64,000 bases of DNA from Candidatus Microgenomates bacterium (GTDB lineage: Bacteria > Patescibacteriota > Microgenomatia > UBA8517 > JACQJR01): NCBI GenBank assembly GCA_016204995.1, contig JACQJR010000001.1, forward strand, positions 167,793 through 231,792. Reading direction: 5' to 3'. The stretch's first letter is position 1. The number at the start of each line of letters is the position of its first letter. The translations under genes and the position numbers were made by a program. Positions 14,535-57,769 of the stretch are shown here, in pieces. Below the pieces are notes generated by a model. It had not been told where the DNA came from. It was given only the letters and a program-made list of their open reading frames with translations, and made no database searches.

Positions 14535-14885
14535 TCACTTCTTTAAAAAGTAAATTATTAATCCAACAACTAAAAATCCATATACATAATTACCTAATAA
14601 TTCCGCGCTTTCATATTCCCCTAAAAAAATTAGCAATAGAGATATAAACAATAGTAAAAATATCGCCAATAAGATTATTTTTATACTTAGCTTAAAGATA
14701 ATCATAAAAGATGCCATAATCATAAATAGAATTAATTCTTTTTTAATATAGAGATTAAAATAGGGAAGAGTTGGTAAAAGATAAAATAAACCCAATAAAA
14801 AAACAAAACCAATAACTTGATGGCGATTAGTAATAATTTTTTTAAAAAAATATTGTTCCAATTTAACTAACTTATATTTTTTCAT
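14535..14885 (-). CDS. Small hydrophobic membrane protein (hypothetical)
   Basis: Three predicted TM segments. Start set at the internal ATG (MKKYKL), which gives a 4-nt overlap with the upstream giant gene. Confidence 0.3.
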   Translation of the reverse strand: MKKYKLVKLEQYFFKKIITNRHQVIGFVFLLGLFYLLPTLPYFNLYIKKELILFMIMASFMIIFKLSIKIILLAIFLLLFISLLLIFLGEYESAELLGNYVYGFLVVGLIIYFLKK

Positions 14886-17800
14886 TGGCGTTTTCTTCTT
14901 TTTAACAAATATATAAAAATTCCCAAAAATGATATACAAAACACTGCTATACTGATTAAAGCCCCCACATAAAAAGCCTTTTGAGGGAAATATTCTATCA
15001 CAAACTTACCAGTGCCTAAACTATCCACCTTCCATCCATTGGCATAACCATCAACTATAAAATGATTTGAAATAATTTTGTTACTTTTAGAAAACAAACC
15101 TTTTATTAAACCAAAAGGATTATTTTGTCCCTCATCTGAATTACTTATCTCTCTTAATCTCCATAATTTATCAAATCGCTCATTAAAAATTAATATAAAA
15201 GGCGTCGCTGATCTTTGTAATTGTAATTCATATCTAGTAGGGTTTTTCTTATCATAATCGACAGATGGCGCTTTAATGGAAAATTTCTTATCACTTTCAT
15301 TATTTAATACTACAAATGGAGAAAATATCTCTTCTGCAGTCACATTATCAATTTGAGGTTTTTCCTTATTCTCATTGCAAACATAAATATTGAGATATTT
15401 TGAATTAATAGAAGGATAGTAAATGTAAGTAAATGGCTGATAGTTTAGTATCGGATAAATACCTAATTCTCGCTGCCCTTTTATGAAATACTGTAATTGA
15501 GGATCTTCTTTATTATCCTCCCTTACAAAAAGTTTAAGTGCCTGATCCTTACGGGAAGCACTAATTCTGACTTTATAAAAAAGACTGCTATCAAATCTTT
15601 CAATGCTTCCATAGTAACAAGATATGGTTCCACTCGGGGACTGCTCTAATTTATAACCGTGGGACTTAAAGATATTTGGCAAATTATCAAATCTAACAAC
15701 TAAGGTAAATGCACCGATCAGACCAGGAGGCGATTCCATATGGATTATATCCTCACTCTTTTTAATTATCTTGAGTGGCCACTCTTTATTTTCTTGGGTT
15801 AATGTTGCCGTTTTGGGATAAATCCGCTGGCCATCGGTATCAAAAGGTAAAAAATGAGTACTAATAAATAAGCCGTCTGAATTTTTTTCTGTTAGATTAA
15901 CATGAAATACTTTTTCATTTCGCCATTTATTTTCGTCATTTAATATTGGTGTATAAAAAGTCTTAATTCTATAAATTTGCCAAAGCACATCGGTTAAACC
16001 TTGAATAACATTTTCGCCAAAAGTGCCAGATCTAGCTTTGTCTAACTCTATGCGAAGATTTATCTCAATTGGGTTAAGGATTTGTATAATCATGCGCGCT
16101 TTCTCAAAATCCTCTTTGGGATCAGAGGTTGATGACAAAAGCTGATGAGTAATTACTAAATAATCATTCATCATTTTTAATGATCCTATCAAATATTTCT
16201 CTCGCTCACGAAAATCCAACATATTTTTTACTTCGCCTGCTCTCCGTAAAGTTGCTCCTAAATAAACATTGATTTTTTCTTTGTCATTAGTGGCTAGAAG
16301 CAATTCCTTTTTTTCTCTGATTTTTTTTAATAAATAAAGAGGGGAATTAGGTAGAACCCTCACTTTGGGTAAATCTGCATTTGTTTCTATATTTTCTATC
16401 AGACAAGACTCACATTGATAATATGTGAGTTCTGCAGAGAATAAATCTCTGGGGATATTATTTGATTTAGATTCTTTTTGGGGAACTAAAAAAATATTAC
16501 TATTAGAAGCAAATGATCTATAAAGAAAAGGGTAATTTTGGGGAATAGCCACCAATGACGATATAGCATAAATCTTTTTATTAAACTCTGAATCAATTTT
16601 ATAAATGGTCCATTCCCCGAAAATTTTTGCTTTCTTGATATGAATCAATGAGCTTAAAATATTTTCAAATTTTTGAGGCGATTTTAAACTGAATAAATGG
16701 TCATCTGCTAAAATATCATTTCTCACTAAGAAAAAATTTATTCCTAGTCTTGATGATAAATTTAATATCTTTTCTTCTTTATCGCCTTGCTCTATAGACA
16801 AGTAAAGCTCCTGTAACCAATTTCTCTCTTCCGGACTTAAACTGGCATCGTTTGCCAGAGTATTTTTAAAAGTTAACATTGACGGCAAGGTAGATAAACT
16901 CCAATATCCCCAACTATAGCTATCTACTTTCCAACCTTCGTCCAGTGATGGTAATAATAAAATCCTCCCATTGGTATAATTATTATCTGCCCAATTTTTA
17001 AAATCCTGGACATAATCGGGAATGTGTACCTTAGTTGTAGCGGACTTTTGCCAATACAAAACTTGAGGAGAAAAAAGCGGTTTATAATACCATAGCCACC
17101 CCCCGATAATAATGATGGTTAAAAATAAAGTAGAAATAGATTTTAAGCCGTCATTCTTAATGAAACTTACTATTTTAATTGAACAAATAGACAAGGTAAA
17201 GCCAATTAGGACGCTCATGCTTAAAAAGAATGTTGATCCGAATTTATAAAAAGGGGTTCTAAATATAACAAACCCCGGTACCTTATCATATAAAAAATCG
17301 TATATGAAACCCAACGGAGGATGAGTTCCGGCCATAAAAATTAAGACGACAACAATTAATAAGACAAAAAAAGAAATTAATCTTCTCTGTATAGTTGTTT
17401 TTACTAATAGTAAAGATGAAAATGCCAATACAGGAAAAAGAAAGCTAACAGCAATTAATGTTTGATCTTTAAAATAGGCCTCCGCATACGGATGATTGAG
17501 ATTAATATTGTATTGATCAGTATACCAATCTGGTATACCTTGTAGTCTAAACATATTAATGAATGAAGAAGACTGGCTGATATAATTAAGCCAAGATTTA
17601 TTAGGGACAGTAATACTTTCATTAAAAAAATTTGATAGATCGCCATAAAATAATTTAACTAAATATGGAAGAATGGCATAACTATTTATCAATATGTAGC
17701 CTACTAGGGTTAGAACTAAGAAGGTTAACAATTTATAAACCTGCTCAAACTTACGTGTTAAAAATCCCCAGATGGTGGTGTACAGCAAAAGCACTAACAC

Positions 17801-21711: not shown

Positions 21712-22779
21712 ATGCCAATAACAAAAACTAGTTTAGTTTCCTGTGTAAAAGTAAAAGTTGGAAAAGATCCTAAATTAGTTTTTAAGGCTGTTGCCCAAGC
21801 CATGAAGCTTGCGCATTGGGAAAAATATGTTAAGGGGCGTAATATTGTTTTAAAAGTGAATGTGGTGTGGGATAAACTTTACCCTAGTTGTACTACTACT
21901 CCCATGGTAATAGAAGGAGTCATAAAAACATTGCTCCAGAAGTTTCCCAATGCTAAAATCACCATTGTTGACACCGATACTCCTGGAATCATGCATGCCC
22001 ATTACTCCTTTAGGAATTTAGGTATTAATTACATGGCTAAAAAGTACGGCATCAAGACTGTCAATCTTACCAATACCAGCTTCCGCACCGTCAACCTTAA
22101 CGGCGAAAAACTTAAAAAATTTAAAGTAAGTAAAGTTCTACTTGATGCAGATACAATTATTACCATTCCCGTGATGAAGACCCATTCTATCTCAACAGTA
22201 TCATTGAGTCTTAAAAATCAATGGGGATGTATTCATGATTTAAGACATAACTTTCATCTCTATTTAGCCAAAGCCATCGGGGACGTAAATAATTTTTATA
22301 AAAAGAAGGTTTCGTTTGTAGTTATGGACGGATTATTTGGCATGGAAGGGAAGGGCCCAAAGAATGGAAAACCAGTTAAGGTAGGATTTATTTTTGCTTC
22401 ACCTGACCGCGTAGCTCTTGATACTCTGGTTGCCCAATCCATGGGGTTTGACCCCCAAAAGGTTGATCATATAACTCATTGCCAAAACTTAAAAATTGGC
22501 ACTATGAACTATAAAATCGTTGGGTCAAAACCACCCAAGATGAAATTTGCCAGTCCCCATGATTTTCAGTTAACCTTTTGGGTAGAAATGTTTTTGAGAA
22601 AACTTGGGCCATTTTATGAAAAATTATTTTTCCAAACGAATATTCTTTACCCTTTACGCCTGGCAGCCAGAGTATACAATGACATTTGGTACTATTTTAT
22701 TGGAAGTAAAAACAAGGACAGGATGATGAAAACAGATTTTGGTCAGATGTGGCAAGAATACTTAAATAATGCTTCTTGA
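21712..22779 (+). CDS. DUF362-like domain protein (hypothetical)
   Basis: [21 protein letters not shown] resembles the conserved DUF362 core. Confidence 0.35.
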
Positions 22780-22804
22780 CTAAAATTAGTAAATTGACTA
22801 CATT
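22776..22804 (+). promoter_or_regulatory. Putative promoter (-35 TTGACT, 17-nt spacer, -10 TACATT) upstream of the ATG at 22818
   Basis: Read from the sequence. The -10 box is weak. Confidence 0.3.
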
Positions 22805-22817
22805 ACAAGTAATTAAA

Positions 22818-23951
22818 ATGCCAAAAAACGGTGAGCTAAAAAAACACCCCGCCACAAAATATGCACTCATCACTGGATGCTCTGGGCTGGTTGGCTCGGG
22901 AGCTGTCCGTTTCTTCTGTGAGCGAGACTTTCAAATAATCGGCATAGATAATAATTTTAGAGAGTACTTTTTCGGTAAAGATGCTAGTACGGATTGGATG
23001 AGAAGACAACTTGAGGAAAAATATCCCAAACAGTTCCAACATTTTTCTATTGATATTCGCGATTACCTAACTCTTGAGCAAATTTTTAAAAGATTTAATT
23101 TTGAATTAGTAATTCATACTGCTGCTCAACCCTCTCATGACTGGGCGGCTCGCGAACCTTTAACAGATTTTTCCATTAACGCCGTCGGCACCTCCAACAT
23201 GCTTGAGTTAACTAGATTATATGCTCCTAATTCTGTTTTCATCTTCACCTCTACTAATAAGGTATACGGGGATTTACCCAATGAACTTCCTCTTATTGAA
23301 CTAGAAAAACGTTGGGAAATTAAGCCTACGCATAGATACTCTCGCGGCATTGATGAAACAATGGATATAGATAATAGTGTTCATAGCCTTTTTGGTGCCT
23401 CAAAAGTGGCAGCCGATGTGCTTGTCCAGGAATACGGAAAATATTTTGGCTTGAAGACGGGGGTGTTTAGAGGCGGTTGCCTCACAGGTCCAGCCCACTC
23501 CGGCACTATGCTCCATGGCTTTTTAGCCTATCTTGTTAAAGCAATCGCCAAGGGAATTCCCTACACCATCTTTGGATACAAGGGAAAGCAAGTTAGGGAT
23601 AACATCCACTCCTCCGACCTTATCAATGCCTTTTATCATTTTTACCAAAATCCCCGTCCTGGTGAAGTCTATAATATGGGTGGATCTCGCCACTCCAATG
23701 TTTCTATGCTGGAGGCAATCGCGAAAATCGAAAAATTACTTAAGAAAAAAGGCAATATAAAATATTCTGATGATAATAGAACTGGAGATCATATTTGGTA
23801 TATTTCAGACGTTTCAAAGTTCAAAACTCACTATCCTAATTGGAATTACAAATATGATGGAGACCAAATATTAGAAGAACTATGTAAATCTATGGTGGAT
23901 AAAAGCTATTCTGTCAAAAAAGAAGAAGCCTTTGTAATTAACGAAAGGTAA
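22818..23951 (+). CDS. NAD-dependent sugar epimerase (SDR family; CDP-paratose/tyvelose 2-epimerase-like)
   Basis: [12 protein letters not shown] Rossmann motif. YGASK. Start at MPKNGE. The ORF-track start was 22776. Confidence 0.6.
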
Positions 23952-29583: not shown

Positions 29584-30846
29584 GTGTATCCTATGAAAAA
29601 ATTAAATAAAAGACCTAATAACTTCCGCCCTAAAAATAAATCATTCTATTCTACAAGTCTAAAGTCCTTATACAAGGCTCATATTACCGAAGGCGAATCT
29701 GTTTTAGAATTTAGCTATGGAATAGAAAATGTGCTGGATGATCTTAATCTTAAAAAAAATCACGCAAGAATAGATATAAGTCGTAAAGTAAAGCCACTAA
29801 AAACGAGAACTAAATTTGACCGAATTATTATACATAATCTTGTAGAGTATGTCTTTGATGTTCAGTTAATCATTGAACGGGCTAGAAGACATATTAAGTC
29901 TGATGGTTTACTTATTCTCTCATCCATCAATCCCCTATGGAAAACATCATTTAAACCTGAAATAAGGAAAAATTGGCAACATACTATATCTCTAAAACAT
30001 CTAATCAGCATAGTTAAGCTAGCAGGATTCCAGATTGAAAAATCAGGTTATCTTATGCCTAAGCTATCCAAATTAGGCGCAATCCAATATCTAGTAGCAA
30101 AACCGCTAACTGCTATGAAAAAAGATCCATCAGTCAGCATCGTCATACCCTGTTACAACGAAGAAGATAATGTTGTAGAAACAGTAAAACAAGCTCCTAA
30201 ACTTGGTAGATTTACAGAAATTATAGTGGTAGATGATGCTTCTAAAGATAAAACTAAGGAAGTAGCAGAATCCTTGAGGAAAAAGTATAAAAATCTCAAA
30301 GTTGTTTCTCGCAAATTAAATGGCGGTAAGGGGCCCGCAGTTAAATCTGGTATTGATGCCGCCAAAGGAGATATCTTGATTATCTGGGATGCGGATAGAA
30401 CTGTACCAGCCAGTGAACTGTATCGTTTTTACGATGCATTAGCGTTGGGTTTGGGACAATTCTCCAATGGCACCCGCATGATCTATAGAATGGAAGGTGA
30501 GGCTATGAGACCATTGCATGTTTTAGGCAATACAGTCTTTGGCTGGCTTTTTAGCTGGATCTTTAGCAATGGCATTAGTGATACACTTTGTGGTACCAAA
30601 GCTTTATTTATGAAAGATGCTAGAAAAATAGAAATGGGCAAGGAAAGATGGGGAGATTTTGATTTATTATTTGGAGCAGCCAGACTTGGTTTAAAAATAG
30701 CCGAGGTGCCTATTCACTATAAATCCCGTGTAGCTGGAGAATCAAAAATGCGAACCTTCAATTATGGCTTTAAGGTAGGTAAAATGGCATTATCAGGTAT
30801 GATTGAATTTAAAATAAAGCCTATTCTAAAAACACTAGTTAGCTGA
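29584..30846 (+). CDS. Fusion: degenerate class I SAM-methyltransferase-like N-terminal domain plus C-terminal GT2 (Dpm1-like) glycosyltransferase
   Basis: N-terminal VLEFSYG (degenerate GxGxG) and FDRIIIHNLVEYV...IKSDGLLIL (MTase post-II motifs). C-terminal VSIVIPCYNEE...IIVVDDASKDKT...IWDAD. Confidence 0.55.
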   Translation: MYPMKKLNKRPNNFRPKNKSFYSTSLKSLYKAHITEGESVLEFSYGIENVLDDLNLKKNHARIDISRKVKPLKTRTKFDRIIIHNLVEYVFDVQLIIERARRHIKSDGLLILSSINPLWKTSFKPEIRKNWQHTISLKHLISIVKLAGFQIEKSGYLMPKLSKLGAIQYLVAKPLTAMKKDPSVSIVIPCYNEEDNVVETVKQAPKLGRFTEIIVVDDASKDKTKEVAESLRKKYKNLKVVSRKLNGGKGPAVKSGIDAAKGDILIIWDADRTVPASELYRFYDALALGLGQFSNGTRMIYRMEGEAMRPLHVLGNTVFGWLFSWIFSNGISDTLCGTKALFMKDARKIEMGKERWGDFDLLFGAARLGLKIAEVPIHYKSRVAGESKMRTFNYGFKVGKMALSGMIEFKIKPILKTLVS

Positions 30847-30987
30847 TAGTTATCTTCAAAACAATTCTGCTTTTTGCTAATGAAGCTCCACGGCTAAATT
30901 CTTAATTACCTTCTTTGGCTGATAAAATTAACTGAAATAGGGGATTGACATTATCTTCCATAAAATATTTAATGATATACATTAATA

Positions 30988-32199
30988 ATGGAAAGATCTA
31001 CCTTCACAGATGCTAAATCTAAACTTGAATACCATCCTCAAACTGTTGAACGCCTATTAAACAACGAACCCGTTATACCAATAAGTATGGAAGTAGATTT
31101 ATCATACTTTTGCGGTGATCAATGTACGTTTTGCCACTTTTCCTACACCCACCAGAAACCCGTTAGAACCGATGCTCTTCTCCCTATCTTAGAGAAAGTT
31201 TTCATGCCCCCCAAGCTGGCCGATGAAGTATTGAGAAAAATGAACGAAGCCGGAGTTAAATCAATTGTTTTTTCTGGAGGGGGAGAACCTACTGATAGCC
31301 CTTTCGCTTTGGAAATTTTTAAAATGGCTAAATCTTACAATCTGGAGTTAGGGATGTACACTAGGGGATTTAACCTAAAAGGTGAACTAGGAGAATTTGT
31401 GGCTAATAACTTTGAATGGGTGGTGGTCTCGCTAGATGTGACTAATCCGGAAGAGCATAAACTTATCAAAGGCACTAATGGGAAAATATTTTTGGAAAAG
31501 TTGGAAAACATCCATAACTTTTTGAAAATACCTAATCGGCATGCCAATATTAGTGTTAGCGCCATGGTGGATACCGGCCACCTAGAAAATGTACCGCCAT
31601 ATCCGGAACAGCAAGATTTATTTGGAACAGATGCCACCCAAGTTACTAAATTAGAACGGGATATGCTTTGGTTATTGGGGTTAGGCGCTGATGAGGTACA
31701 GATTAGACCAATTATAGATACCGGATCATATAAAGAGCAAAGAGAATCTCACCAAATGAAGGGGATGGCTTTTATGACTGATAAACAAATCTGGCAGGAA
31801 CATTATAGTTGGATTCCTAAAGTAGTATCAATTCTGGAAAGATATAATAGTCTAGCTGGCCTAAATACGTCAATAGATAAATTTCATCAAGTCTATGAAG
31901 GGGAAAGTGGAGAGGAGACATGTTATGGTATGGTAATATCAGCTGGTTTGGTTGCCAGTGATGGAAAAGTCTACAAATGCGTCAACACACGATCTATTCC
32001 GGAAAAAATTATTGGCGATTTAAAAACCCAATCCATGGAAGAGATTTTTCTTTCCGAATCTTTAGATCGCTCCATTGATAGTTTTTGCAGGGTCGGATGT
32101 CGAGGATGTAAAGTCAATGAAGTTTTTAATAGACTATCTCATTCCGAAACAGTATTCTTATCACCACGACAAGGTGTCAAACATCCCAATTTTATTTAG
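30988..32199 (+). CDS. Radical SAM enzyme with C-terminal auxiliary-cluster (SPASM/twitch-like) cysteines
   Basis: Canonical CGDQCTFC (CX3CXFC). FSGGGEPT GGE motif. C-terminal C-x18-C...CRVGCRGC. Confidence 0.65.
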   Translation: MERSTFTDAKSKLEYHPQTVERLLNNEPVIPISMEVDLSYFCGDQCTFCHFSYTHQKPVRTDALLPILEKVFMPPKLADEVLRKMNEAGVKSIVFSGGGEPTDSPFALEIFKMAKSYNLELGMYTRGFNLKGELGEFVANNFEWVVVSLDVTNPEEHKLIKGTNGKIFLEKLENIHNFLKIPNRHANISVSAMVDTGHLENVPPYPEQQDLFGTDATQVTKLERDMLWLLGLGADEVQIRPIIDTGSYKEQRESHQMKGMAFMTDKQIWQEHYSWIPKVVSILERYNSLAGLNTSIDKFHQVYEGESGEETCYGMVISAGLVASDGKVYKCVNTRSIPEKIIGDLKTQSMEEIFLSESLDRSIDSFCRVGCRGCKVNEVFNRLSHSETVFLSPRQGVKHPNFI

Positions 32200-32235: not shown

Positions 32236-34386
32236 ATGAAAAATGTCACGCGGGCTAAACTTTTACTCTTAATATTAATCTTAGCTTTTTTATTAAGAAC
32301 CATCGGTATTACCCCAAATTTCCAACAGCATCCTGATGAACCTGGAGTAATCGAACCCGCAAGCAAAATTGCAATAAATACAATTTTCCATCATAATCCA
32401 GACCCCAATGTAGAACCTCAACCATTTAAATACTCCTCCTCTATTTTCTATATGCACGCTTTAATTAGAAGCATTATTCTCATGAGCAGCTACTCCATTT
32501 ACAAAACTACCGGCTTTACCTTTAACATCCCAAAACAAAATTTCGGCGAACCAAGTTTTGAACAGTTTATAGCAGATTTAGGCCCCTACTTTTTGAGTGA
32601 TATTTTATTATGGGCGCACAGATTCCCCAGTGTAATATTTGGAACGCTTACTGTCCTTTTCGTTTATAAGACTGCTTTACTTTTATTTAAAAAAGGGGGT
32701 CTTGCCTTACTTTCCGCATTAGCACTTGCTATCATGCCCCAGCACGTCCGCGACTCGCATTGGGCAACAGTCGGTATTATTCAGACTTTCTTCTTTACCC
32801 TAGCTTTTTATCTAAGTGCAAGAGCATGGAAATTACCAGACACCAAAAATTGGATTATGGCCAGCGTTATCGCTGGTTTTGCAGTGTCTATTAAATACTT
32901 CCCCTTGCCCTTACTACCTCTCTTTTTTTTTCTCTTTTTGGCACGTACTAAAATTACACCTAGTTTTCTGATTATTATCTTTTTGTCAATCTTTGTTGGT
33001 TATTTTTTGGGCATGCCCTATATTTTTGCCCATATTCAAGAAATGATTAATGCTTTCAAATCTCAAGTTGCTTTTTATTCTCCTGAAAAAGTAGGAGGTG
33101 AACAATCATTTTTTGCGCACATTTTGCCTTTATATTTGCACGGATACCACTTCAATTTTTTTTACAAAATAGCCGTGGGGCCATTACTTTCGTTAGTTGG
33201 GTTAATTGGAACATTTTATGGGATTAAAAAGTGGGGATTGGAAGCTGTTTCGCTACTAATTATCCCCGTCATCAACCTGCTATTCATAACTTTTTATTTA
33301 GAAGCAGTTTACGAAACGCTTGATATTCCCGCTCTACCTTTTTTCGCTATATTTATCGGAATAGGAGCTTGGGCCATCTTACAAAAAGCTCAAAATAACA
33401 AAATCATATTGGCGGTGATATTAAGTATTATATTTTTGCCTGCATTTTTAGATTCTGCCCAAGCCTCATTAGCATGCACAAAAACTATTACTGAATTTGA
33501 GGCCCATGATTGGATAGCTGAAAATATTCCAGAAGGAATTACTTTAGCATTTCAACCGAATATGCGCCTCCCTTCTAAAAATTTTAAATTTGTCCGCTCT
33601 GAACCAAAAGAGAAGTTTTTACTTGCCGAAATTCAAGAAAGTGGCGCAGAATATGTTGCCTTGCATTCAGGATACACCGATCGTTATTCCCAATGGCTCG
33701 ATGATAAACTTTTTCTATCGCAGTATGTCAAAAATAATGAATTTACACATCTTGTTCTGCAGGAATATGAGCAAAATACAAGGCTGCTAAAATCATTCGT
33801 TAAACCCACCATGTGCGTAAATAGCCGTATATATATTTATAAGATTCCCCCTCTTCTTAATCCAGCTAAAAATATAATTCAACAGTTTAACTTTAGTGAC
33901 CAAAACTATTTCTCTGGTTGGAAATTAGGTCATCTAAAAGTTCCCTCGGGAACAAGGATTGAACTATTATCAACATCAAATGGTACTAAATTAAAGTATC
34001 AATATGACTCTGATATCTTTTCCCAGCAGTTGGGAAAAGGGACTTTACCTCCTGCTTTTTACGGCACCCCATTTCGCTCTCCCTTTATTAATATAAATAG
34101 TGAAAAAAAATATTCTGCAACTATGTTAGTTAAAAAGATATACAGATCTTTAAGTCAACTCCCCAATGGATTTCTAAGATTAGACTTTTATCAAAGCAAC
34201 AAAGAAGAACCTATTTTAACTAGAATTTCGCCTAGGCTTACGCCAGAAAACAATGAATGGCAAAAATTGCTTATTACTTCCTATGCACCTAATAATGCCA
34301 AATTTGCTACTATCTCTTTTCAAACATCAGTGGCTTCAGAACCTTCAGAATATTTGATAGATAAAGCCACTCTGATGGGAGATTAG
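32236..34386 (+). CDS. GT-C glycosyltransferase, PMT/ArnT-like (group A) with C-terminal CBM-like domain
   Basis: Loop-1 motif QHPDEPG. MPQHVRDSHW. Multi-TM. C-terminal GFLRLDFYQSNKEEP...EWQKL...APNNAKFATISFQ. Confidence 0.6.
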   Translation: MKNVTRAKLLLLILILAFLLRTIGITPNFQQHPDEPGVIEPASKIAINTIFHHNPDPNVEPQPFKYSSSIFYMHALIRSIILMSSYSIYKTTGFTFNIPKQNFGEPSFEQFIADLGPYFLSDILLWAHRFPSVIFGTLTVLFVYKTALLLFKKGGLALLSALALAIMPQHVRDSHWATVGIIQTFFFTLAFYLSARAWKLPDTKNWIMASVIAGFAVSIKYFPLPLLPLFFFLFLARTKITPSFLIIIFLSIFVGYFLGMPYIFAHIQEMINAFKSQVAFYSPEKVGGEQSFFAHILPLYLHGYHFNFFYKIAVGPLLSLVGLIGTFYGIKKWGLEAVSLLIIPVINLLFITFYLEAVYETLDIPALPFFAIFIGIGAWAILQKAQNNKIILAVILSIIFLPAFLDSAQASLACTKTITEFEAHDWIAENIPEGITLAFQPNMRLPSKNFKFVRSEPKEKFLLAEIQESGAEYVALHSGYTDRYSQWLDDKLFLSQYVKNNEFTHLVLQEYEQNTRLLKSFVKPTMCVNSRIYIYKIPPLLNPAKNIIQQFNFSDQNYFSGWKLGHLKVPSGTRIELLSTSNGTKLKYQYDSDIFSQQLGKGTLPPAFYGTPFRSPFININSEKKYSATMLVKKIYRSLSQLPNGFLRLDFYQSNKEEPILTRISPRLTPENNEWQKLLITSYAPNNAKFATISFQTSVASEPSEYLIDKATLMGD

Positions 34387-34390
34387 AAAA

Positions 34391-36832
34391 TTATTCAGCG
34401 TTTAAGAGGCTTTTATCTTTATTAAATTCTTTGAGTGAAGGATGCCATGCTTCTATTTTACTAATTTTTAGATTGCTGGGGAAATCAGCTACATTAATTT
34501 TAATAGATTTAATTCGCCTACCTGTTTTTGGCAGCTGAATTGTATATTCATTAAAGCTACTCAAACCTTTTATATAAATTTTCTGCTCCTGCCCAGCTGG
34601 GTAACCCCCATCCCCATCCACTCTCCAATTTATTTCTACGGGAATTTTTTCCTTTAAAATTTGTTTGTAAAAACGCAGCATTGTTTCCCAATTAGGAAAA
34701 TATGCTGCCGGGTTATTCCTAACAAGGAAGTAATTTTCTAAATCTTTCTTCTCCAAAGGTTTATCAAAAATTTCAATCTCATCTACAGCCGGCGTCCAAC
34801 CGCCTCTTGTCTTTTTAATAATTAGACGAATGTATTTTGCTTCCTTTCCACCTACTTCTGTGGTAAAAAACTGTCCTGTTGTCAATCTGGGTGCATTAGT
34901 TACATGCTCAACAGTGATAAATTCTTTACCATCCTGGGAAATAGAAATTTCATATTCTGATGGCGCTCGGAACTCCCACGGTGCAGTCCGAGAAGAAGCC
35001 CAAACAATCTTGTAGACCTTTGTGAGATCTCCAAGATCTATGGTAACCTTGGTCCCTTCCGACTCCCACTGCGAAGGAATCCAAGTAGTTACATTTTTAC
35101 CATCAATTACATTATTTATATTGTGCTCATCACTCATAGAGGAAACATCAGCTGTAATCATTTTTGCTCTTTTAGCCTCTTGATTAAAGAATAGATCAAA
35201 GTATTGATCAAGCGACATACTCCCTCCTTGTAGGAACAATTTTGGGGCTATTTCTTTGGTTAAATCAACTCGCATCCATGCCTTGATAAAAACCGGGGTG
35301 GAGGCGGGAATATCCAAATCAGTTAGTTCAATTTCTTTGCCATCTAAATTGCTGCCTAAATTGACTTTTTGTCCAGCCGATAAAATCTTACGAGCTTCCG
35401 GCGTCTCTTCCAAAATATCTCCTCGTTTATAGTCAAAAGCATAAATATCATTAGGCCCTAAATTATTATGTTGGAGTAATCTCACGGCTTCTAGTGGATC
35501 TGTTGCTAAATGAAAATCATCAAATCGCTTACTATAAAATCCTGCTAGAAAATGAGCGCTGCCCGCATCGCTGCCGGAAACATAAGGTCCGGGCGGGTAA
35601 GGACGCGTAAGTGTGGTCAATAAAACTGAATCCCTATCAATATGCGGAGCTTTAGTGGTAATAGTCTCATAAAAATACTTTAAATGACTAGAATGAGATT
35701 CCCATCTATTGTTAATTACATAATTTGAGAAGTAAATATGAAACAATAAAATAATAAAAAAGACTAGTAACTGCAGTTTCTTTCTAAGAATACTTAAAAT
35801 AATTGCAAGGTACCCTGAAACAAATGGAAGCAAGACTATATAAAATCTGTGCGAAGAGGGCCAAATAGTGGGGATTTGACCGACAAAGGAAATAACTAAC
35901 ATAATCACCGCTAAAGATAAAAATATTATCAAAGAAAAAAAGAATGCTATCCAAAAAAGTTTTTTCTTTTCACGCCAAAGATGTAATAAAGGTAGAATTA
36001 AAACGAGTAAGGCCAGAAATCCAAAAATCGTCTCAATACTCTCCGGCAATTTACTAAAAATCAATAACAGGTCTGAAGGGAACAAAACGTTCCCCAGATT
36101 TTTTACAAAAACATCTAACATTTCCCAGCTAATATTAAGATGAGTAATTTTGCCAAAGATAAGTTTGAAGCTTTGAAAAAAAATTATGACAGGCAAAATA
36201 AATAAAATTACCATAGGCAAAAAAGGGCGCCACGATATTCTTTTACCAGTTTGGTAAGTTTGAGATAAAATTAAAAGCGGAATCCAAATCAAAAGTAGAA
36301 AAGAACGAAATTGAAAAAAATAGAGGGAAAATAAAAGTGAGGCTGCGAAAAAGATTAAATTAAATTTGCTTCTATGCTTTAAATAATTAATCAGCAAAAT
36401 TAGGGTTAAAAGAGACGATATAAGAAAAACTAAGTGAATTTGTCCTCCAGCCACATTCCACGTTAAAGATTCAATGCCCAAATAACCACTTGCCGCAATA
36501 GCAGCAGCATACACTGAAATTTCTTTCCTTTTTGTGTACAGAATCCGCATAAATAAATAAAACAATACTAGAAATAATAAGAAAAGAATAAACGAGGCAA
36601 GGTAATAAAAAAATGGATTGTAACCAAAAAAGAAATACTCTATAGTTACCAATGGTCGCAGAAATAAATAAGCTACAAACCCGGGATACAAAAAAATACT
36701 ATGTGGATCACTGGGGAATTGGACTCCATAAAGCAAAGAAAAATCCTCATAAGAAAAATAATATTTAAGGATTTGAGAAATGCTTAAAAAAGCAATGACA
36801 ATAATCAAAAAAATCTTCTTAATCATTTGCAA
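34391..36832 (-). CDS. YfhO-like/GT-C polytopic membrane protein (group C) with C-terminal discoidin (F5/8 type C)-like carbohydrate-binding domain
   Basis: N-terminal TM plus YFSYEDFSLLYG acidic loop. About 13 TM helices. C-terminal NVIDGKNVTTWIPSQW...YKIVWASSR...EISISQDGKEF...TRGGWTPAVDEIEIF resembles a discoidin/F5/8-C domain. Confidence 0.5.
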   Translation of the reverse strand: MQMIKKIFLIIVIAFLSISQILKYYFSYEDFSLLYGVQFPSDPHSIFLYPGFVAYLFLRPLVTIEYFFFGYNPFFYYLASFILFLLFLVLFYLFMRILYTKRKEISVYAAAIAASGYLGIESLTWNVAGGQIHLVFLISSLLTLILLINYLKHRSKFNLIFFAASLLFSLYFFQFRSFLLLIWIPLLILSQTYQTGKRISWRPFLPMVILFILPVIIFFQSFKLIFGKITHLNISWEMLDVFVKNLGNVLFPSDLLLIFSKLPESIETIFGFLALLVLILPLLHLWREKKKLFWIAFFFSLIIFLSLAVIMLVISFVGQIPTIWPSSHRFYIVLLPFVSGYLAIILSILRKKLQLLVFFIILLFHIYFSNYVINNRWESHSSHLKYFYETITTKAPHIDRDSVLLTTLTRPYPPGPYVSGSDAGSAHFLAGFYSKRFDDFHLATDPLEAVRLLQHNNLGPNDIYAFDYKRGDILEETPEARKILSAGQKVNLGSNLDGKEIELTDLDIPASTPVFIKAWMRVDLTKEIAPKLFLQGGSMSLDQYFDLFFNQEAKRAKMITADVSSMSDEHNINNVIDGKNVTTWIPSQWESEGTKVTIDLGDLTKVYKIVWASSRTAPWEFRAPSEYEISISQDGKEFITVEHVTNAPRLTTGQFFTTEVGGKEAKYIRLIIKKTRGGWTPAVDEIEIFDKPLEKKDLENYFLVRNNPAAYFPNWETMLRFYKQILKEKIPVEINWRVDGDGGYPAGQEQKIYIKGLSSFNEYTIQLPKTGRRIKSIKINVADFPSNLKISKIEAWHPSLKEFNKDKSLLNAE

Positions 36833-38256
36833 TAGATAAGTTGATATTTTGGCGGTTCTTGATCTAAATATGACCTCATCTGCCTAGTGAATCCCTCATA
36901 ATGATATGGTTTAAATAACAATGCATGCTCACGCTCTATTAAGATTTCAGTATCACAAGGGACGCTTAAACTACCATAGTAAGGATACAACAAAGTTGGG
37001 TTGACAAGGTAGAATTTTCCCCCTGAAATAGTCGGAGGGTCGGTAGTATTATCATCAACTACCTCTTTTTTAGTATAAATATCTTCAAGCGTGTATTTAC
37101 TATTTTTAGTTTTTAAATAATTTTCCGCCTCTTCTCTAAATGCTGTAGGATAAATTAAATGTTTAAAAGTATTAAAACGGGGCCACCAGTTTACTAAAAC
37201 AATAAAAATGAAAGCGCTGAATCCCAATGCATAAAATAAGCGAGATTGACAAACTTTTCTAAATAAACTATCCAAAGCTATTATCCCATATATTAAAAGG
37301 AGTAGATAGAATGGACGGATTGTACGACCATATAAAACAGTTTTTGCTGCTATATGGGAAAATATTTCTAGGATTAAAAAAATCAGAATCAAATAAATTA
37401 TCCATGGAAAAAATTTCTTTTTTTCTTTAAGAAAAATTATTAGAGGGGCAAAAGCAATAATTAATAAACCCAGTATCCCATCGTATGATCGAACATATTC
37501 AGTTAAAAACGGTAAGACCGGTATAAAATCTCCTTGTGTTACAATACCCGATAAATGTTGTGCCTCATCAAAGTAAGATGGTGTTGCGCCGATAGCCATT
37601 GATATTAATTGAGCAGAAATAACAACTAGTGCAAAGCCACCGACAAAAAAAACCGATTTTTTTAATTTAAATCTTTTGTTGTAAATAAAAAGTAAAAATG
37701 GTATTGGAATAAGATAATAAAAATTACTCGGATAAATAAGAAAAGATACAGCACTAATTATTCCAAAATTTAAGGCTGATTTTCTTTTAATAAAAACATA
37801 TAAAGCTAAGAGTAAAGTTGCCAAACTAGCGTCATAAGGCAACATATGTCGTATATAGAAAATGGAAGAGATGGAAAAAATTAATACTATAGTAGCCAGG
37901 ATAGCCGTACTTTGGTTGACTATCCTTTGGAGAATCAAATAAACAAATATGGGAATTAAGGAATTAAAAACTAGGTTCAGCATTGTCCCGTATGGGACAT
38001 TCGGCTTCTGCACTTCAAGCCAAATTGGAATGGAATATAAAATTCCAAAACCGGGTTTGGCATTAATCCCAAAGACGCCTTGAAAATAAAGTGTTGGATT
38101 TTTTTCTTTCTCGCTTTGTTTCAAAGTATTAATTAGGCGCTTATAAAAAATTTCATCTCCAAAAAAATATTGCCCGTTGGGGTTAAATAAAGATAATCTC
38201 GTAAGCAGAATTAAAAACAGCAACAATATAAATAATTTGGGAGTTTTAAATCTCAT
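36823..38256 (-). CDS. Polytopic membrane protein (hypothetical, GT-C-like)
   Basis: N-terminal TM helix followed by about 11 further helices. Confidence 0.35.
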   Translation of the reverse strand: MRFKTPKLFILLLFLILLTRLSLFNPNGQYFFGDEIFYKRLINTLKQSEKEKNPTLYFQGVFGINAKPGFGILYSIPIWLEVQKPNVPYGTMLNLVFNSLIPIFVYLILQRIVNQSTAILATIVLIFSISSIFYIRHMLPYDASLATLLLALYVFIKRKSALNFGIISAVSFLIYPSNFYYLIPIPFLLFIYNKRFKLKKSVFFVGGFALVVISAQLISMAIGATPSYFDEAQHLSGIVTQGDFIPVLPFLTEYVRSYDGILGLLIIAFAPLIIFLKEKKKFFPWIIYLILIFLILEIFSHIAAKTVLYGRTIRPFYLLLLIYGIIALDSLFRKVCQSRLFYALGFSAFIFIVLVNWWPRFNTFKHLIYPTAFREEAENYLKTKNSKYTLEDIYTKKEVVDDNTTDPPTISGGKFYLVNPTLLYPYYGSLSVPCDTEILIEREHALLFKPYHYEGFTRQMRSYLDQEPPKYQLIYCK

Positions 38257-40751
38257 TTATCTAGATCTCCTAGTTTAGGGTAAAAAAGTGACGCTTTTCT
38301 AATATTTATTTTTGCCGGGAAATTTAATACTTGAATCTTTAATGACTTTACTTCTTTGCCAATATATATCGGTAAAATCGTATGAATATTTTGTATTCTA
38401 TTTATCTCAACTGGAATAATTTTTGATCGCCCCACCGGATAATCGGTGTTTTCATCAACTCTCCAAGAAATTTCTAAATTAATAAAGTTTTTTAGTATTT
38501 CTTTCAAATAATGCCGGGCTATTTCTTTACTAAAAAAATAGTCTTGAGGATTCTGTTTAACTAAAAAGTATTCATTAAAATTTATATCTTTATCATTGCT
38601 ATCAAAAAATTCTACTTCGTCAATCGCCGGAGTCAATCCTCCTCTGGTTTTATTAATAGTAATTTTAACAAATCTAGCTACTTGTTCTGGGATTTCGTCA
38701 ATAAAAAATTCGCCTGTCTTTATGATAGGAGCAGACTTGACAGTTTTTACTTCATGAAAGTCAAATCCATCTTTTGATAACTCAATTTTATAATCCGAGG
38801 GCAATCTTGCATACCAACTGGCAGTACGGGAGGAGGACCAAACAATACGATTAATATTTCTCTCCCTTTCTAAATCTAGCAATATAGATAATCCACCTTG
38901 ATGCCAGTTTTTGGGGATCCAAGTGGTACTATAATCTCCGTCAATTATATTAGAAACTTCATGTTCAAAACTTAAAGATTCTTCTTTTGTAGTAACGCTT
39001 ATATTTTTTGATAAAACATTTTCTTTAAAGAGTAATTTAAAGTATTTTTCTAGATCTTTAGATAATATCTGATTAGATTTATTTAAATAATTATTACTTG
39101 GAAAATCGGGATAGACCTTAAATTGCATATTAAGATACAAGGGGGCTGAGGTCGGCAAAGAAAGGTTATTAAAACTTATTACCCTATTGTATAAATCCCA
39201 ACCAAGATTTATTTGCCTACCATTTTTTAAAATTTCTCTAGTCTGCTCTGTTACATTAAGTAATTCTCTTCTCCTATAATGTAGGGCATACAGATGGTCT
39301 TCTGAAACCTTCAGTTTATTAAGAGTTTCTACTGCTTCAGCCGGAGACAAAACTAATTTAAAATTATCTGTCCTTTTTCCATAAAATCCAGCTGGCATCG
39401 CCAAAGCATTGGCATCTCTGGCAGAAACCAAAATACTGACCGGTGTTGGTTCCCCTTGGGTGATTAATAAAACATCATTATTATTCATCTCGGGAACATA
39501 CTCGCGTAGTGTTTGATAAAAATATTGCAAGTGGCTAATTGGATTCTCCCACCTATCCTTTATGACTTGATTGGACAAAATTGCATGGCTGATAATCCAA
39601 AATCCCAGGAAGAATAGGGTTAAAAACCTACTTCTTCTCTGCAGAATAACCAAAATTGTGCCTAAAAATCCAGCCAAGAAAGGAAAAATAACTATGTAAA
39701 ATCTATGACTAGAATACCACACGGCCGGAGAAACAATCACCAAACTAATCGCTAGCTGAAGAATAAATAGATTAATAATAATCGTTGACCCAAAGAAAAA
39801 TAATAATGACCGTTCTTTAATTTTTTTTATAAAGCAGGTTATTATTGTCGCAAGAATAAAAGATAATCCTACAATGCCGGCAAATACCTCAATAACAGTT
39901 AAATTAAATTTTTGATTCGTTGCTATATAGTTTAATAATTCCGCTGGGAAAAATATATTGCCCATATTTCTGGTATAAACTTCCATAAATTGCCCGATAT
40001 CAAAGTTAACATGGGCTCCTCTACTAGAATTAAACCCTAAGCTTTCTTTATAAAAGAAAAATCCTAATATAAAAATAAAGAACAGAAGAAATAAAAAAGA
40101 CTTTGGCAATTTTTTAATACTGTTAATTGTAAGTATTAGTAATGGTATCCAAACAAATAAAAGGAAGGAACGAAATTGAAAAAAATAAATAGCTGTAAGA
40201 GCGCTTACGATAAATCCCAATAAGTAAACAAGTTTAAATTGATTGAAATATGTAGATTTATTTTTCTTAAGATAGGAAGTTATAAAAATAAAAGATAACA
40301 AGCAGAGTATTAAAAAAACTGTATTGTTGGGGCCAGCGCCCATATTCCAAGTCAGAGCTTCAACACCAATGTACCCGCTAGCTACAATTAGCGATGAAAA
40401 AAGAGCCAAACTTTGGTTCCTAGATAATAATGATTTTACAAAAAAATAAAAAACAAGTATAAAAAGGAGAAATAAAATGAACGAGATTATATAATATCCT
40501 TTTGCTTCATAGCCGAAGAGCTGAAATAAGGGAGTAAAAAAGGGTTGTAAAAAATGATAGCCCGAAGCATCTGTAGCTGCCAGAATGCTATCTTTATCAG
40601 TGGGAAATTGTAGAGCATAGAATAAGAAAAAATCGTCATAGAAAAAATAATAATTTATAATTCGACCTACGCTTAGAATACAAAGAAAAAAAATACCAAG
40701 TAGGGAGAAAAAATCAATTTTTGATAGTTTGAAGATATTTCCCCATTTCAT
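38253..40751 (-). CDS. YfhO-like/GT-C polytopic membrane protein (group C) with C-terminal discoidin-like domain
   Basis: YYFFYDDFFLFYALQFP loop. VASGYIGVEALTWN. C-terminal SNIIDGDYSTTWIPKNW...IVWSSSRTASW...TRGGLTPAIDEVEFF. Confidence 0.5.
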   Translation of the reverse strand: MKWGNIFKLSKIDFFSLLGIFFLCILSVGRIINYYFFYDDFFLFYALQFPTDKDSILAATDASGYHFLQPFFTPLFQLFGYEAKGYYIISFILFLLFILVFYFFVKSLLSRNQSLALFSSLIVASGYIGVEALTWNMGAGPNNTVFLILCLLSFIFITSYLKKNKSTYFNQFKLVYLLGFIVSALTAIYFFQFRSFLLFVWIPLLILTINSIKKLPKSFLFLLFFIFILGFFFYKESLGFNSSRGAHVNFDIGQFMEVYTRNMGNIFFPAELLNYIATNQKFNLTVIEVFAGIVGLSFILATIITCFIKKIKERSLLFFFGSTIIINLFILQLAISLVIVSPAVWYSSHRFYIVIFPFLAGFLGTILVILQRRSRFLTLFFLGFWIISHAILSNQVIKDRWENPISHLQYFYQTLREYVPEMNNNDVLLITQGEPTPVSILVSARDANALAMPAGFYGKRTDNFKLVLSPAEAVETLNKLKVSEDHLYALHYRRRELLNVTEQTREILKNGRQINLGWDLYNRVISFNNLSLPTSAPLYLNMQFKVYPDFPSNNYLNKSNQILSKDLEKYFKLLFKENVLSKNISVTTKEESLSFEHEVSNIIDGDYSTTWIPKNWHQGGLSILLDLERERNINRIVWSSSRTASWYARLPSDYKIELSKDGFDFHEVKTVKSAPIIKTGEFFIDEIPEQVARFVKITINKTRGGLTPAIDEVEFFDSNDKDINFNEYFLVKQNPQDYFFSKEIARHYLKEILKNFINLEISWRVDENTDYPVGRSKIIPVEINRIQNIHTILPIYIGKEVKSLKIQVLNFPAKINIRKASLFYPKLGDLDK

Positions 40752-55297: not shown

Positions 55298-57769
55298 CTA
55301 GCCTTTAGGAAAGGCTTTAACTAAATTAGCTACCTTTTCAACTTCTTCGTCAGTAATAACGGCATCTAAAGGTAGAGTCACTACCCGAGAAGCTATATAT
55401 TCTGTCACTGGAAGTTTGGCATGATTATATTTGGCAAAAGCTGGTTCTTTATTAAGGGCTAGAAAATGGAAAGAGCAACCAACGCCATTTTCTTTCATAT
55501 ATTCAAAAAACTCATCACGCTTCTTTTCTACTAATATCGGATAAAGATGAGTCCCTTTATTATTAAATCCTAATAATTCATTATAAAGAGCTACTACTTC
55601 CTTTCGTCTTTGCTCAAATTGATCAAGGCGAGCCAGCTGCACCCTACCTAAGGCTGAATTAATATCAGTGGTATTAAATTTATAACCAGGAAATTCCACT
55701 TCATAGACCCATTTTGATTTAAGTTGATACCTTTTCCAGGCATCACGCGACAGACCATGCAACCGGGCCTTCCTTAACCAATCGGCCACTTTCTCATCAT
55801 TGGTAGTAATCATCCCGCCCTCACCCGTAGTCATATTTTTGGTAGCGTAAAAAGAGTAACAACGGGTAAAAGAATTAGTATTGTCGCCATTTTTAGGAAT
55901 CAAATGAGCACTATCTTCAATAATTGGCAGATCTGTTTCTATTATTGCCCGATTCCCCCCATAGTGGACTGGCATTACTGCTTTCGTTTTTTGGGTGATA
56001 ACTTTTTCCAATGATTTTTGATCCATACAAAAATTTTCTTTGTTAATATCAGCAAAAACTGGTGTGGCTCCAGCATGAACAATTACAGAAACTGTCGCAG
56101 GGAAAGTAAAGGCCGGTACAATCACCTCATCTCCTGTCTTAATACCTAAAGCCTTGAGGGAAAGAAAAAGAGCTGCCGTACAACTATTAACTGCGATGGC
56201 ATATTTTGCCCCAACGTAACTTGCAAATTCCTCTTCAAACTTAACTGTTTCTTCTCCCATCGTCAACCAACCACTTTGTAAAATTTGTGCCACCGCATTT
56301 ACCTCCATCCGCTTAATATTGGTACGAGAGAAAGGAATTACACCATTACTGGAATTATGATTTGTTAAATTGGGAACAAACTTATTTAAAGTCATTAGAG
56401 CTAATTCTATATTATTACTCTCTACTGCCTTTCTTAAATCAGCTAAATCATAAAGATCAATATTGGCCGCATGCTGACTAACCCGAAAAATTCTACCATG
56501 ACCAGTTTTCTCTAGATATTCATCTTCTGCGATTAATTGTTCAGTAATTTTTTCACCCGGCCGTCGCCCTATGTATTTAACTTGAATCTCTTCTCCAGGA
56601 ACAAATCCAGCTAGTTGAATCATAAATTTGGCCAAGTCATCGATTCTAAATTGCTCACCCATGTCTAGCACAAAAATCTCTCCACCGCGACCGATGACGC
56701 TGGTATGAAGCACTAATTGCACTGCTTCTGGGATAGTCATCATAAACCTGGTCATTCTAGTATCAGTTACCGTAACAGGACCGCCACTGGCAATCTGTTT
56801 TCTAAAGATTGGCATAACACTACCATGACTATCCATCACATTACCAAATCTGACAGCGCAATATTTAGTCCTACCTAGATCATTAAGACTGGCTAAAATA
56901 TGTTCTCCCACGAGCTTTGTCGTTCCCATCACACTTTGAGGGCTGGCCGCCTTGTCAGTAGAAATATAAACAAACTTTTCCACTCCTTCTTCGTAAGCCA
57001 CTTTGGCTAGATTTTCCGTACCAAAAACATTATTGCGAATTGCCTCCAAGGGATGGCTTTCCATTAAAGGTACGTGTTTAAAAGCGGCGGCATGGAAAAT
57101 GACATCAGGCCTGTTCTTCCTTATTACATCCTGTACTTTTCTTCTATCCTGCATGTTACCAACCATGCATTCAAAATTTCCTTCCGATGCTAGTTCTGCT
57201 AACTCAAACCCTAACTCAAATAAACCATTTTCCCACCAATCAAAAGCGATTAATTTTTTAGGAGAAAATTGAATAAGCTGACGACAAATTTCTGAGCCGA
57301 TTGAGCCAGCTGCTCCTACTACTATCAGAGTTTTATCTTTGAACTCACTCTCAAAAATTGGTTGTTCTTTTTTGACAATAGCCTTACCGAATAAATCTTC
57401 TATTTTTAGTTCACGGAATTGTTCCAGTTTTACCTTTCCTTGAACCATCTCTAGGGTACGAGGAACAATTTTAAAAAATACTCTCGCCCCTCGGCACGCT
57501 TCTAAAATTTTTCTGATGGTACTTCCTTCAGCGGAGGGAATCGCTATTAAAATTCCGTCTACAGAATATTTTTTAATCAATAGTAGTAATTCATCAATTT
57601 TACCTAAAATTTTAACGCCTTTGATGTCTTTGCCGATTTTGGTTTTATCATCATCAATAAAACCAACAACTTGATATTGTTTTTTAAAATGAAGACGTAG
57701 CTCGTTTAATAATTCTTCTCCGGCTACACCAGCTCCAACTATTAATACTTTTTGAGAATTTTTATTCAT
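55298..57769 (-). CDS. Bifunctional fusion: PglF/CapD/WbpM-like UDP-sugar 4,6-dehydratase (soluble, two Rossmann domains) plus C-terminal DegT-family aminotransferase (PglE-like)
   Basis: N-terminal LIVGAGVAGEEL...GFIDDD linker domain and LIVVGAAGSIGSEI...HAAAFKHVPLME...STDKAASPQSVMGTTK catalytic SDR domain. C-terminal ILQSGWLTMGEETVKFEEEF...AVNSCTAALFLSL DegT domain. The ORF is continuous. Confidence 0.7.
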   Translation of the reverse strand: MNKNSQKVLIVGAGVAGEELLNELRLHFKKQYQVVGFIDDDKTKIGKDIKGVKILGKIDELLLLIKKYSVDGILIAIPSAEGSTIRKILEACRGARVFFKIVPRTLEMVQGKVKLEQFRELKIEDLFGKAIVKKEQPIFESEFKDKTLIVVGAAGSIGSEICRQLIQFSPKKLIAFDWWENGLFELGFELAELASEGNFECMVGNMQDRRKVQDVIRKNRPDVIFHAAAFKHVPLMESHPLEAIRNNVFGTENLAKVAYEEGVEKFVYISTDKAASPQSVMGTTKLVGEHILASLNDLGRTKYCAVRFGNVMDSHGSVMPIFRKQIASGGPVTVTDTRMTRFMMTIPEAVQLVLHTSVIGRGGEIFVLDMGEQFRIDDLAKFMIQLAGFVPGEEIQVKYIGRRPGEKITEQLIAEDEYLEKTGHGRIFRVSQHAANIDLYDLADLRKAVESNNIELALMTLNKFVPNLTNHNSSNGVIPFSRTNIKRMEVNAVAQILQSGWLTMGEETVKFEEEFASYVGAKYAIAVNSCTAALFLSLKALGIKTGDEVIVPAFTFPATVSVIVHAGATPVFADINKENFCMDQKSLEKVITQKTKAVMPVHYGGNRAIIETDLPIIEDSAHLIPKNGDNTNSFTRCYSFYATKNMTTGEGGMITTNDEKVADWLRKARLHGLSRDAWKRYQLKSKWVYEVEFPGYKFNTTDINSALGRVQLARLDQFEQRRKEVVALYNELLGFNNKGTHLYPILVEKKRDEFFEYMKENGVGCSFHFLALNKEPAFAKYNHAKLPVTEYIASRVVTLPLDAVITDEEVEKVANLVKAFPKG

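Follow-up and report, generated by a model that had tools for sequence, protein, structure and literature searches.

To our knowledge, almost all that is known of the sugar chemistry carried out by radical SAM (S-adenosylmethionine) enzymes comes from antibiotic pathways, the examples being DesII, BtrN, AprD4 and BlsE. Extracytoplasmic glycosylation by three-component systems involves a GtrB/ArnC-type glycosyltransferase of family 2 (GT2), a flippase and a glycosyltransferase of the GT-C fold (PMC11127046). Here we describe a gene for a radical SAM enzyme, called rSAM below, that lies between a GT2 gene and a GT-C gene in a stretch of 64,000 nucleotides from Candidatus Microgenomates bacterium (contig JACQJR010000001.1, positions 167,793 to 231,792; "the window" refers to this whole stretch). 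The rSAM gene (30988..32199, forward strand) starts with ATG and encodes a 403-residue protein of an orphan family, with what is predicted to be an abridged SPASM (twitch-like) C-terminal domain. We think that rSAM is probably a sugar-tailoring radical enzyme that feeds the pathway to a lipid-linked sugar donor, and that its product is most likely an unusual surface sugar rather than a modified peptide.

Motifs, fold and family assignment of rSAM

The open reading frame (ORF) at 30988-32199 had been picked out from its sequence for a CGDQCTFC motif, a GGE motif and C-terminal auxiliary cysteines, and all of these features are present, as judged from motif positions and from Pfam. The Radical_SAM family (PF04055) matches the protein with E=4.2e-16 and 60 bits vs a gathering score of 29.5, and this match is not due to chance. 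The CX3CX2C motif (C42, C46 and C49 in F-CGDQCTFC-H; 31111..31134, forward strand) holds the predicted ligands of the SAM-cleaving [4Fe-4S] cluster, and SGGGEP at residues 96-101 (31273..31290, forward strand) is the GGE motif, which binds SAM. The GGE motif and a partial TIM-barrel fold, by which membership of the radical SAM superfamily is judged, are both found in the protein. In an alignment of 33 sequences (15 close relatives and 18 distant ones), S96, G97-G99 and P101 are invariant and E100 is nearly so, and C42, C46 and C49 are unchanged in all 33 as well as in 60 wider representatives. The predicted structural model is confident (pLDDT, the predicted local distance difference test, 91.4). 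The NCBI protein with 100% identity to rSAM, an entry carried by contigs of up to 609 kb, bears only the name 'radical SAM protein [Candidatus Microgenomates bacterium]'.

Seven cysteines are invariant throughout the alignment, the three of the SAM cluster and C312, C331, C367 and C371; C374 is restricted to the close clade. The last five belong to an auxiliary-cluster region (31921..32109, forward strand) made up of a C312-X13-G-X4-C331 hairpin and of C367-X3-C371-X2-C374. The hairpin, with G326 as its glycine, matches the SPASM/twitch hairpin motif, and in the model C312 and C331 flank two strands (320-322 and 327-329). A profile alignment to anSME equates C331 with the cysteine of DGSVYPC, and C367 and C371 with the terminal CX3C of CX2CX5CX3C. 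A full SPASM domain also has the CX2C half of this motif and a final cysteine, both of which the family lacks, and the full CX2CX5CX3C occurs in none of 128 wider representatives. The set of seven cysteines that marks a SPASM domain with two auxiliary clusters (CX9-15GX4C ... CX2CX5CX3C ... C) is therefore not found in rSAM. The twitch arrangement, a CX..GX4C hairpin with two downstream cysteines and one auxiliary [4Fe-4S] cluster as in BtrN, is found at the level of sequence and model. Pfam SPASM (PF13186) matches marginally above its cut-off of 21.5 (E=1.1e-4, 22.9 bits), the SPASM domain model TIGR04085 scores 18 bits, below its cut-off of 27, and NF033640 (N_Twi_rSAM) is not among the NCBIfam matches of the protein. 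Because the CX2C half is absent and only four auxiliary cysteines are invariant, a single, fully cysteine-ligated auxiliary cluster is predicted. Thus, the sequence predicts a twitch-like or abridged SPASM protein with one auxiliary cluster, not a SPASM enzyme with two. The earlier description of rSAM as SPASM-type is right about the C-terminal auxiliary cysteines and does not extend to a two-cluster SPASM domain, given the missing CX2C half and the low TIGR04085 score.

Every NCBIfam model stays below its cut-off on rSAM, and the best ones match only the generic core, residues ~30-208. These scores bear on the possibility that rSAM is a diverged housekeeping or antiviral enzyme (MoaA, QueE, a tungsten-cofactor maturase or viperin) that lies among glycosylation genes by accident. 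The top matches by E-value are indeed of these kinds: W_rSAM_matur with 62.5 bits, prokaryotic viperin (NF038283) with 39.8 bits and the archaeal MoaA model TIGR02668 with 36 bits. However, the respective cut-offs, at 380, 180 and 325, are far above these values, which come from the generic core only. The MoaA models NF001199 and TIGR02666 reach 32 bits vs a cut-off of 231 and 23 bits vs a cut-off of 284, and QueE is absent from the NCBIfam matches; assignment to MoaA or QueE, which the sequence-only reading had singled out as a check, thus came out negative. In addition, the rSAM neighbourhood is conserved over the loci of 10 relatives (see below), and there are no molybdopterin, queuosine or tungsten-enzyme genes among the genes of the window. 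We therefore regard a misplaced housekeeping or antiviral enzyme as very improbable. MoaA, QueE, viperin and anSME assignments were ruled out by score.

Other named families fare no better. PqqE scores 27.5 bits (cut-off 381) and BlsE (TIGR04466) 23.3 bits (cut-off 400), no anSME model (TIGR03942 included) matches rSAM at E<=0.01, and the peptide-maturase models all lie at 16-37 bits vs cut-offs of 300-650. No NCBIfam cut-off is reached by 60 wider relatives either. The classification by subgroup that had been suggested for rSAM resolves, with the NCBIfam models used here, only to the SPASM/twitch group.

Comparison of the model with known structures gives a similar picture. The scores are 22.1 for BlsE, 21.9 for SkfB, 21.5 for DesII, 21.1 for anSME, 20.8 for ChlB, 20.2 for SuiB, 18.6 for MoaA, 18.5 for viperin and 18.0 for BtrN, with identities of 14-19% throughout. 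DesII gives the longest structural alignment (307 residues) and the top rank in Foldseek (9e-14, TM ~0.5, TM being the template modelling score). Searched alone against PDB sequences, rSAM finds nothing at E<=0.1; the family profile finds BlsE best (3.7e-11, 45.8 bits) and also DesII (E=1.2e-7, core only). In a viral structure library, the matches are phage radical SAM proteins with generic names only. Two of the nearest structural neighbours have nucleoside- or nucleotide-linked sugars as their substrates. As far as the model goes, the fold firmly assigns rSAM to the SPASM/twitch group, and it cannot tell sugar enzymes from peptide enzymes.

Gene neighbourhood in the window and in related loci

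In the window, rSAM is placed between a GT2 gene and a GT-C gene and is co-oriented with both, as the sequence-only reading had stated, with gaps of 141 bp on its 5' side (30847..30987) and 36 bp on its 3' side. The GT2 (29584..30846, forward strand; Pfam Glycos_transf_2, E=3e-27) is of the Dpm1/ArnC/AglJ type and resembles polyprenyl-phosphate sugar synthases. Its best NCBIfam matches are AglJ, Dol-P-hexose transferase, PgfS, ArnC and PpgS, all under cut-off. This gene had been read as a fusion of a methyltransferase-like domain and a GT2; the GT2 part stands, and the methyltransferase-like region at the N-terminus is only weak and lies under the Pfam cut-offs. The GT-C gene (32236..34386, forward strand) encodes a membrane glycosyltransferase of the GT-C fold (Pfam PMT_2, E=5e-14, above the gathering score) and is presumed to use the lipid-linked sugar. 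GT2 and GT-C, the catalytic parts of a three-component module, are thus encoded together, and orthologous pairs of the two are kept in three related loci (L009, L020 and L051), where the GT2s are 63-67% and the GT-Cs 54-58% identical to those of the window. No small GtrA-type flippase adjoins the rSAM module, although no wider search was made. An ORF of 134 residues without a Pfam match is found at 14535-14939, distant from the module.

The close rSAM family is rare and present in a few uncultured groundwater bacteria. Among 5.8 billion clustered proteins, 15 clusters have 46-100% identity to rSAM, all from metagenomes or metagenome-assembled genomes; beyond this there is a gap in identity, and the next proteins have ~350 residues and are 21-30% identical. 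A profile search, run exhaustively over 1.84 billion representatives, found only three close ones (P0013, P0034 and the fragment P0035); the number of matches is 19 at E<=1e-30 and rises to 1,406 at E<=1e-10. The close family consists of clade A (the window protein and P0002-P0006, with 59-82% identity among members), clade B (P0007 and P0009-P0012, 59-74%) and four singletons. A scan of GTDB genomes yielded one close locus, the contig of P0013, and so gives no taxonomic breadth. P0013 is 55% identical to the window rSAM and lies on CAYMZD010000003.1 (L011, 164 kb), which is labelled 'uncultured Gammaproteobacteria bacterium'. The genes around P0013 (L004) are of the types seen in the island of the window, and the Gammaproteobacteria label or the binning may be wrong. 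Five large proteins of 1,444-6,428 residues (P0046, P0100, P0125, P0132 and P0164) contain an internal domain that matches the family profile with E ~1e-22 to 1e-34.

Neighbourhoods were compared at the loci of 10 relatives with flanking sequence, counted apart from the window's own contig. A small GT2 of the Dpm1/ArnC/AglJ-like kind is 0-3 genes from rSAM in all 10. In clade A, the order is GT2, rSAM, GT-C in the window and L020, and GT2, methyltransferase, GT-C, rSAM in L009 and L051. Across these four loci the GT2s are 63-71% identical and the GT-Cs 54-59%. Since both are orthologous across the clade, the same three genes stay linked despite their permuted order.

The clade B loci L005, L008 and L022 have a GalU-like nucleotidyltransferase, rSAM and an RmlD-like reductase in that order; the last two genes share 4 bp in L005 and 1 bp in L008. 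Upstream of these genes, L005 and L008 have a divergent small GT2 of a second type; the short L022 contig ends before that point. The singletons L004, L007 and L052 have this clade-B-type GT2 divergently adjacent to rSAM. In L007, rSAM is followed by a gap of 257 bp and then by an RmlD-like ORF of 215 residues that matches RmlD positions 79-281 (L007 9275-10180). This ORF is truncated at its N-terminus and probably represents a reductase gene with a frameshift or a wrong gene call.

Distant homologues (24-30% identity) with the same four auxiliary cysteines occur in glycan cassettes (L031, L034, L010 and MW202801). In L031 and L034 the order is glycosyltransferase, rSAM, glycosyltransferase and SDR epimerase. 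Two unrelated phages carry a homologue (22-28% identity to the window rSAM) inside a structural module next to glycosyltransferases (L010 8001-10416; L053, which is MW202801.1, 4977-9640). The cassette in MW202801 comes immediately after the capsid gene region and consists of genes for rSAM, a glycosyltransferase, a PhyH dioxygenase, a methyltransferase, a NodB-like protein and a second glycosyltransferase. It resembles a cassette for virion glycosylation that includes a radical SAM step.

The pairing with GT2 and GT-C would also be compatible with modification of a lipid, either the lipid carrier itself (such as the polyprenyl chain that the pair would use) or another membrane lipid. However, the operons of nucleotidyltransferase, rSAM and RmlD-like reductase indicate a soluble nucleotide sugar, and the distant homologues in phages and bacteria accompany Leloir-type glycosyltransferases and SDR epimerases, not lipid enzymes. 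GDGT-MAS also scores clearly below the sugar and peptide enzymes. We consider a lipid substrate quite unlikely.

The same loci speak to whether rSAM could mature a peptide or protein, either as a SPASM enzyme of the kind that acts on ribosomally synthesized and post-translationally modified peptides (RiPPs), or as an anSME-like enzyme whose substrate would be a protein of the island that is secreted or glycosylated. The structural scores of peptide maturases equal those of the sugar enzymes. However, a precursor gene has no space beside rSAM in the window or in the 10 relatives. The adjoining gaps there are 12-81 bp in the relatives and at most 141 bp when the window is included, or the genes overlap; the sole larger gap, the 257 bp 3' of rSAM in L007, precedes the truncated RmlD-like gene. 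A check of the flanks for short Cys/Ser-rich ORFs found, in the 141-bp gap, only ORFs of 23 and 26 residues, neither of them rich in Cys or Ser, in agreement with the earlier statement that there is no precursor-like small ORF nearby. The Pfam scan detects no RRE or PqqD domain, with Radical_SAM and SPASM as the only matches and the core beginning at ~residue 33. SPASM maturases have a second auxiliary-cluster site that rSAM lacks, and the peptide-maturase models, as noted above, score far under their cut-offs. A protein substrate of the anSME type, which the sequence-only reading had allowed for, is not supported, since no anSME model matches and none of the 48 window ORFs scanned has a sulfatase domain. 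Its preference for a glycan over a RiPP stands, as glycosylation genes adjoin rSAM in all 10 loci, with no room for a precursor and no RRE/PqqD-like domain. We judge maturation of a peptide or protein to be unlikely.

An Rfam scan of the whole window found no riboswitch, tRNA or other RNA, and in a promoter and terminator scan the matches were at or below the count expected from shuffles.

A proposed role in sugar tailoring

For rSAM, the motifs, the fold, the assignment to its superfamily, the conservation of gene neighbourhood and the lack of a precursor gene are direct findings; its substrate class, its chemistry and the role of its auxiliary cluster are what we infer. We postulate that rSAM is an active enzyme, that its CX3CX2C cluster cleaves SAM to generate a 5'-deoxyadenosyl radical, that this radical would abstract a hydrogen from a sugar carbon, and that the single auxiliary [4Fe-4S] cluster predicted on C312, C331, C367 and C371 would carry the extra electron. 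The auxiliary cluster might accept an electron, in which case the substrate radical would become a keto-sugar, much as in the dehydrogenase reactions of BtrN or DesII. Alternatively, it might donate an electron in a radical dehydration resembling that of AprD4, in which a neighbouring hydroxyl would be eliminated before reduction. In the sister clade, clade B, the translationally coupled RmlD-like NAD(P)H reductase would then reduce the product to an epimer or a deoxy sugar.

The likeliest substrate would be a UDP-hexose made by the GalU-like nucleotidyltransferase, with a polyprenyl-phosphate-linked sugar less likely, and we favour, with some reserve, a nucleotide sugar over a lipid-linked one. 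A UDP-hexose is favoured because the clade B rSAM holds the position that RmlB and RmlC have in a rhamnose operon. The neighbouring Dpm1/ArnC-like GT2 would load the modified sugar onto polyprenyl phosphate, and the neighbouring PMT_2 GT-C would transfer it outside the membrane.

Several points weigh against a sugar-tailoring role of this kind. Clade A, to which the window gene belongs, has no adjacent RmlD-like reductase and no dedicated nucleotidyltransferase. For the L005 reductase, the best match in the window has only 25% identity over 144 residues and is not an orthologue, and a search of the window for an orthologue of the GalU-like nucleotidyltransferase gave a best identity of 35-36%, again not an orthologue. 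The two-enzyme scheme, with its reductive half, may thus not apply to the window gene. Its reaction may instead be redox-neutral, or it may act on a lipid-linked sugar. Furthermore, the 10 neighbourhood loci come from related metagenomic lineages and are not independent. The probability that is left after sugar tailoring and the three alternatives described above belongs to other functions.

A bolder version of the proposal is that rSAM is the first radical SAM component of three-component surface glycosylation with a polyprenyl-phosphate GT2 and a GT-C, and that the sugar it makes is a rare one, for instance an epimer or a deoxy sugar produced by radical chemistry. The enzyme might even act on a lipid-linked sugar, like an oxygen-independent counterpart of the oxidation-reduction epimerisation by DprE1/DprE2. 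The wider family, at least 1,400 representative clusters that share the four-cysteine abridged SPASM domain, might then be a general class of glycan-tailoring radical SAM enzymes that phages also use, in cassettes resembling those for virion glycosylation. We regard this version as doubtful.

If rSAM does tailor sugars, radical SAM sugar chemistry would be extended to surface glycans, by way of primary cell-envelope glycosylation, and an unknown sugar would be present on the surface of these uncultured bacteria, whose envelopes have hardly been characterised at all. The sister-clade operon would then be a compact pathway of four genes (nucleotidyltransferase, rSAM, RmlD-like reductase and divergent GT2), and the homologues in phage modules suggest that the same class of enzyme may shape the glycans of phage particles. 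If rSAM only performs a routine oxidation, the result would be a useful annotation and nothing further. The gain in annotation is clear; the gene is now labelled only 'radical SAM protein'. The evidence for its role is contextual, and the sister-clade operon is testable.

The wider island and comparison with known systems

The window (1-64000) is a glycosylation island, with 8 GT2, 9 GT-C (PMT_2- or AftD-like) and 3 GT4 genes. It also encodes three DegT aminotransferase domains, formyl- and acetyltransferases, several SDR dehydratases or epimerases and 3 methyltransferases. The sequence-only reading had called rSAM the second radical SAM gene of the window, and the other gene does lie 27 kb off (3227-4318, reverse strand); it encodes 363 residues and is 23% identical to rSAM. 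On one side of it lies a nucleotidyltransferase gene (2427-3224), and on the other are genes for a GFO/IDH/MocA oxidoreductase (4361-5413) and for a GT2 (5403-6104). L009 has this arrangement as well, at 13.9-17.2 kb, which is 6.5 kb from the rSAM of that locus. Recurrence of the pair in L009 indicates a conserved lineage feature of the island, not a one-off, so the view that two radical SAM enzymes in one island are unusual has to be softened: the pair is there, and it is repeated. The copy at 3227-4318 has CNLWCELHC (CX3CX3C), with an insertion of one residue compared with the CX3CX2C of three aligned homologues (L009, L012 and L013), and from its sequence it may be impaired or may bind its cluster in an unusual way.

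Two reverse-strand genes of the island, at 34391-36832 and 38253-40751, encode proteins of 813 and 832 residues in which the N-terminal half is hydrophobic and an F5/8 type C (discoidin) domain lies at the C-terminus. Discoidin-domain genes of a similar kind are found near rSAM in L004, L007, L008, L009 and L051. These proteins may be transferases that resemble GT-C enzymes and carry a module for sugar binding. At 55298-57769 (reverse strand), an 823-residue fusion joins a PglF/CapD-type 4,6-dehydratase (Polysacc_synt_2, E=6e-105) to a DegT-type aminotransferase (E=4e-97), two steps that are normally encoded by separate genes. A DUF362 protein (E=7e-44) is encoded at 21712-22779 (forward strand), where its gene overlaps the end of a GT-C gene; directly 3' of it is an SDR 4,6-dehydratase-like gene (22776-23951) that is atypically long, at 391 residues.

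A literature search, incomplete in its coverage, found no paper that deals with the rSAM family or describes a radical SAM enzyme as part of a GT2/GT-C system. In that search, no paper naming both GT-C and GtrB also names radical SAM, and a cyanophage paper lists a generically annotated radical SAM gene and nothing more. We conclude that rSAM represents a rare, uncharacterised family in a new context, with the caution that silence in the literature is not proof of novelty.

Among characterised enzymes, the top structural neighbour of the rSAM model is BlsE, the cytosylglucuronate decarboxylase of blasticidin S biosynthesis (PDB 7VOB), with only 18% identity and a sequence alignment limited to core residues 76-218. 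BlsE belongs to an antibiotic pathway, not to envelope glycosylation, and rSAM has no adjacent genes for UDP-glucuronate or other uronic acids. DesII, the TDP-4-amino-4,6-dideoxy-D-glucose deaminase/dehydrogenase (PDB 8HZV/8HZY), is 16-19% identical to rSAM with the TM of ~0.5 given above. It is longer by 60-100 residues, and the genes beside rSAM are not a desosamine set. Also, DesII is described with a single cluster, unlike the rSAM family, which keeps four invariant auxiliary cysteines. The twitch dehydrogenases BtrN and SpeY and the AprD4-AprD3 dehydratase-reductase pair belong to aminoglycoside pathways and act on free aminocyclitols or pseudodisaccharides, not on nucleotide- or lipid-linked sugars, and the sequence similarity of BtrN to the rSAM family is marginal (profile E=0.22). 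In contrast to anSME, SkfB, SuiB, CteB and PqqE, rSAM lacks the second auxiliary site (the CX2C half and the final cysteine), an RRE and an adjacent precursor or sulfatase gene.

Judged from these comparisons, rSAM appears to resemble the radical SAM enzymes that tailor sugars in antibiotic pathways while being a member of none of their families, with negative outcomes in all equivalog tests. What sets it beside the three-component systems is its position, embedded between their two catalytic parts, the Dpm1/ArnC/AglJ-like GT2 and the PMT_2 GT-C.

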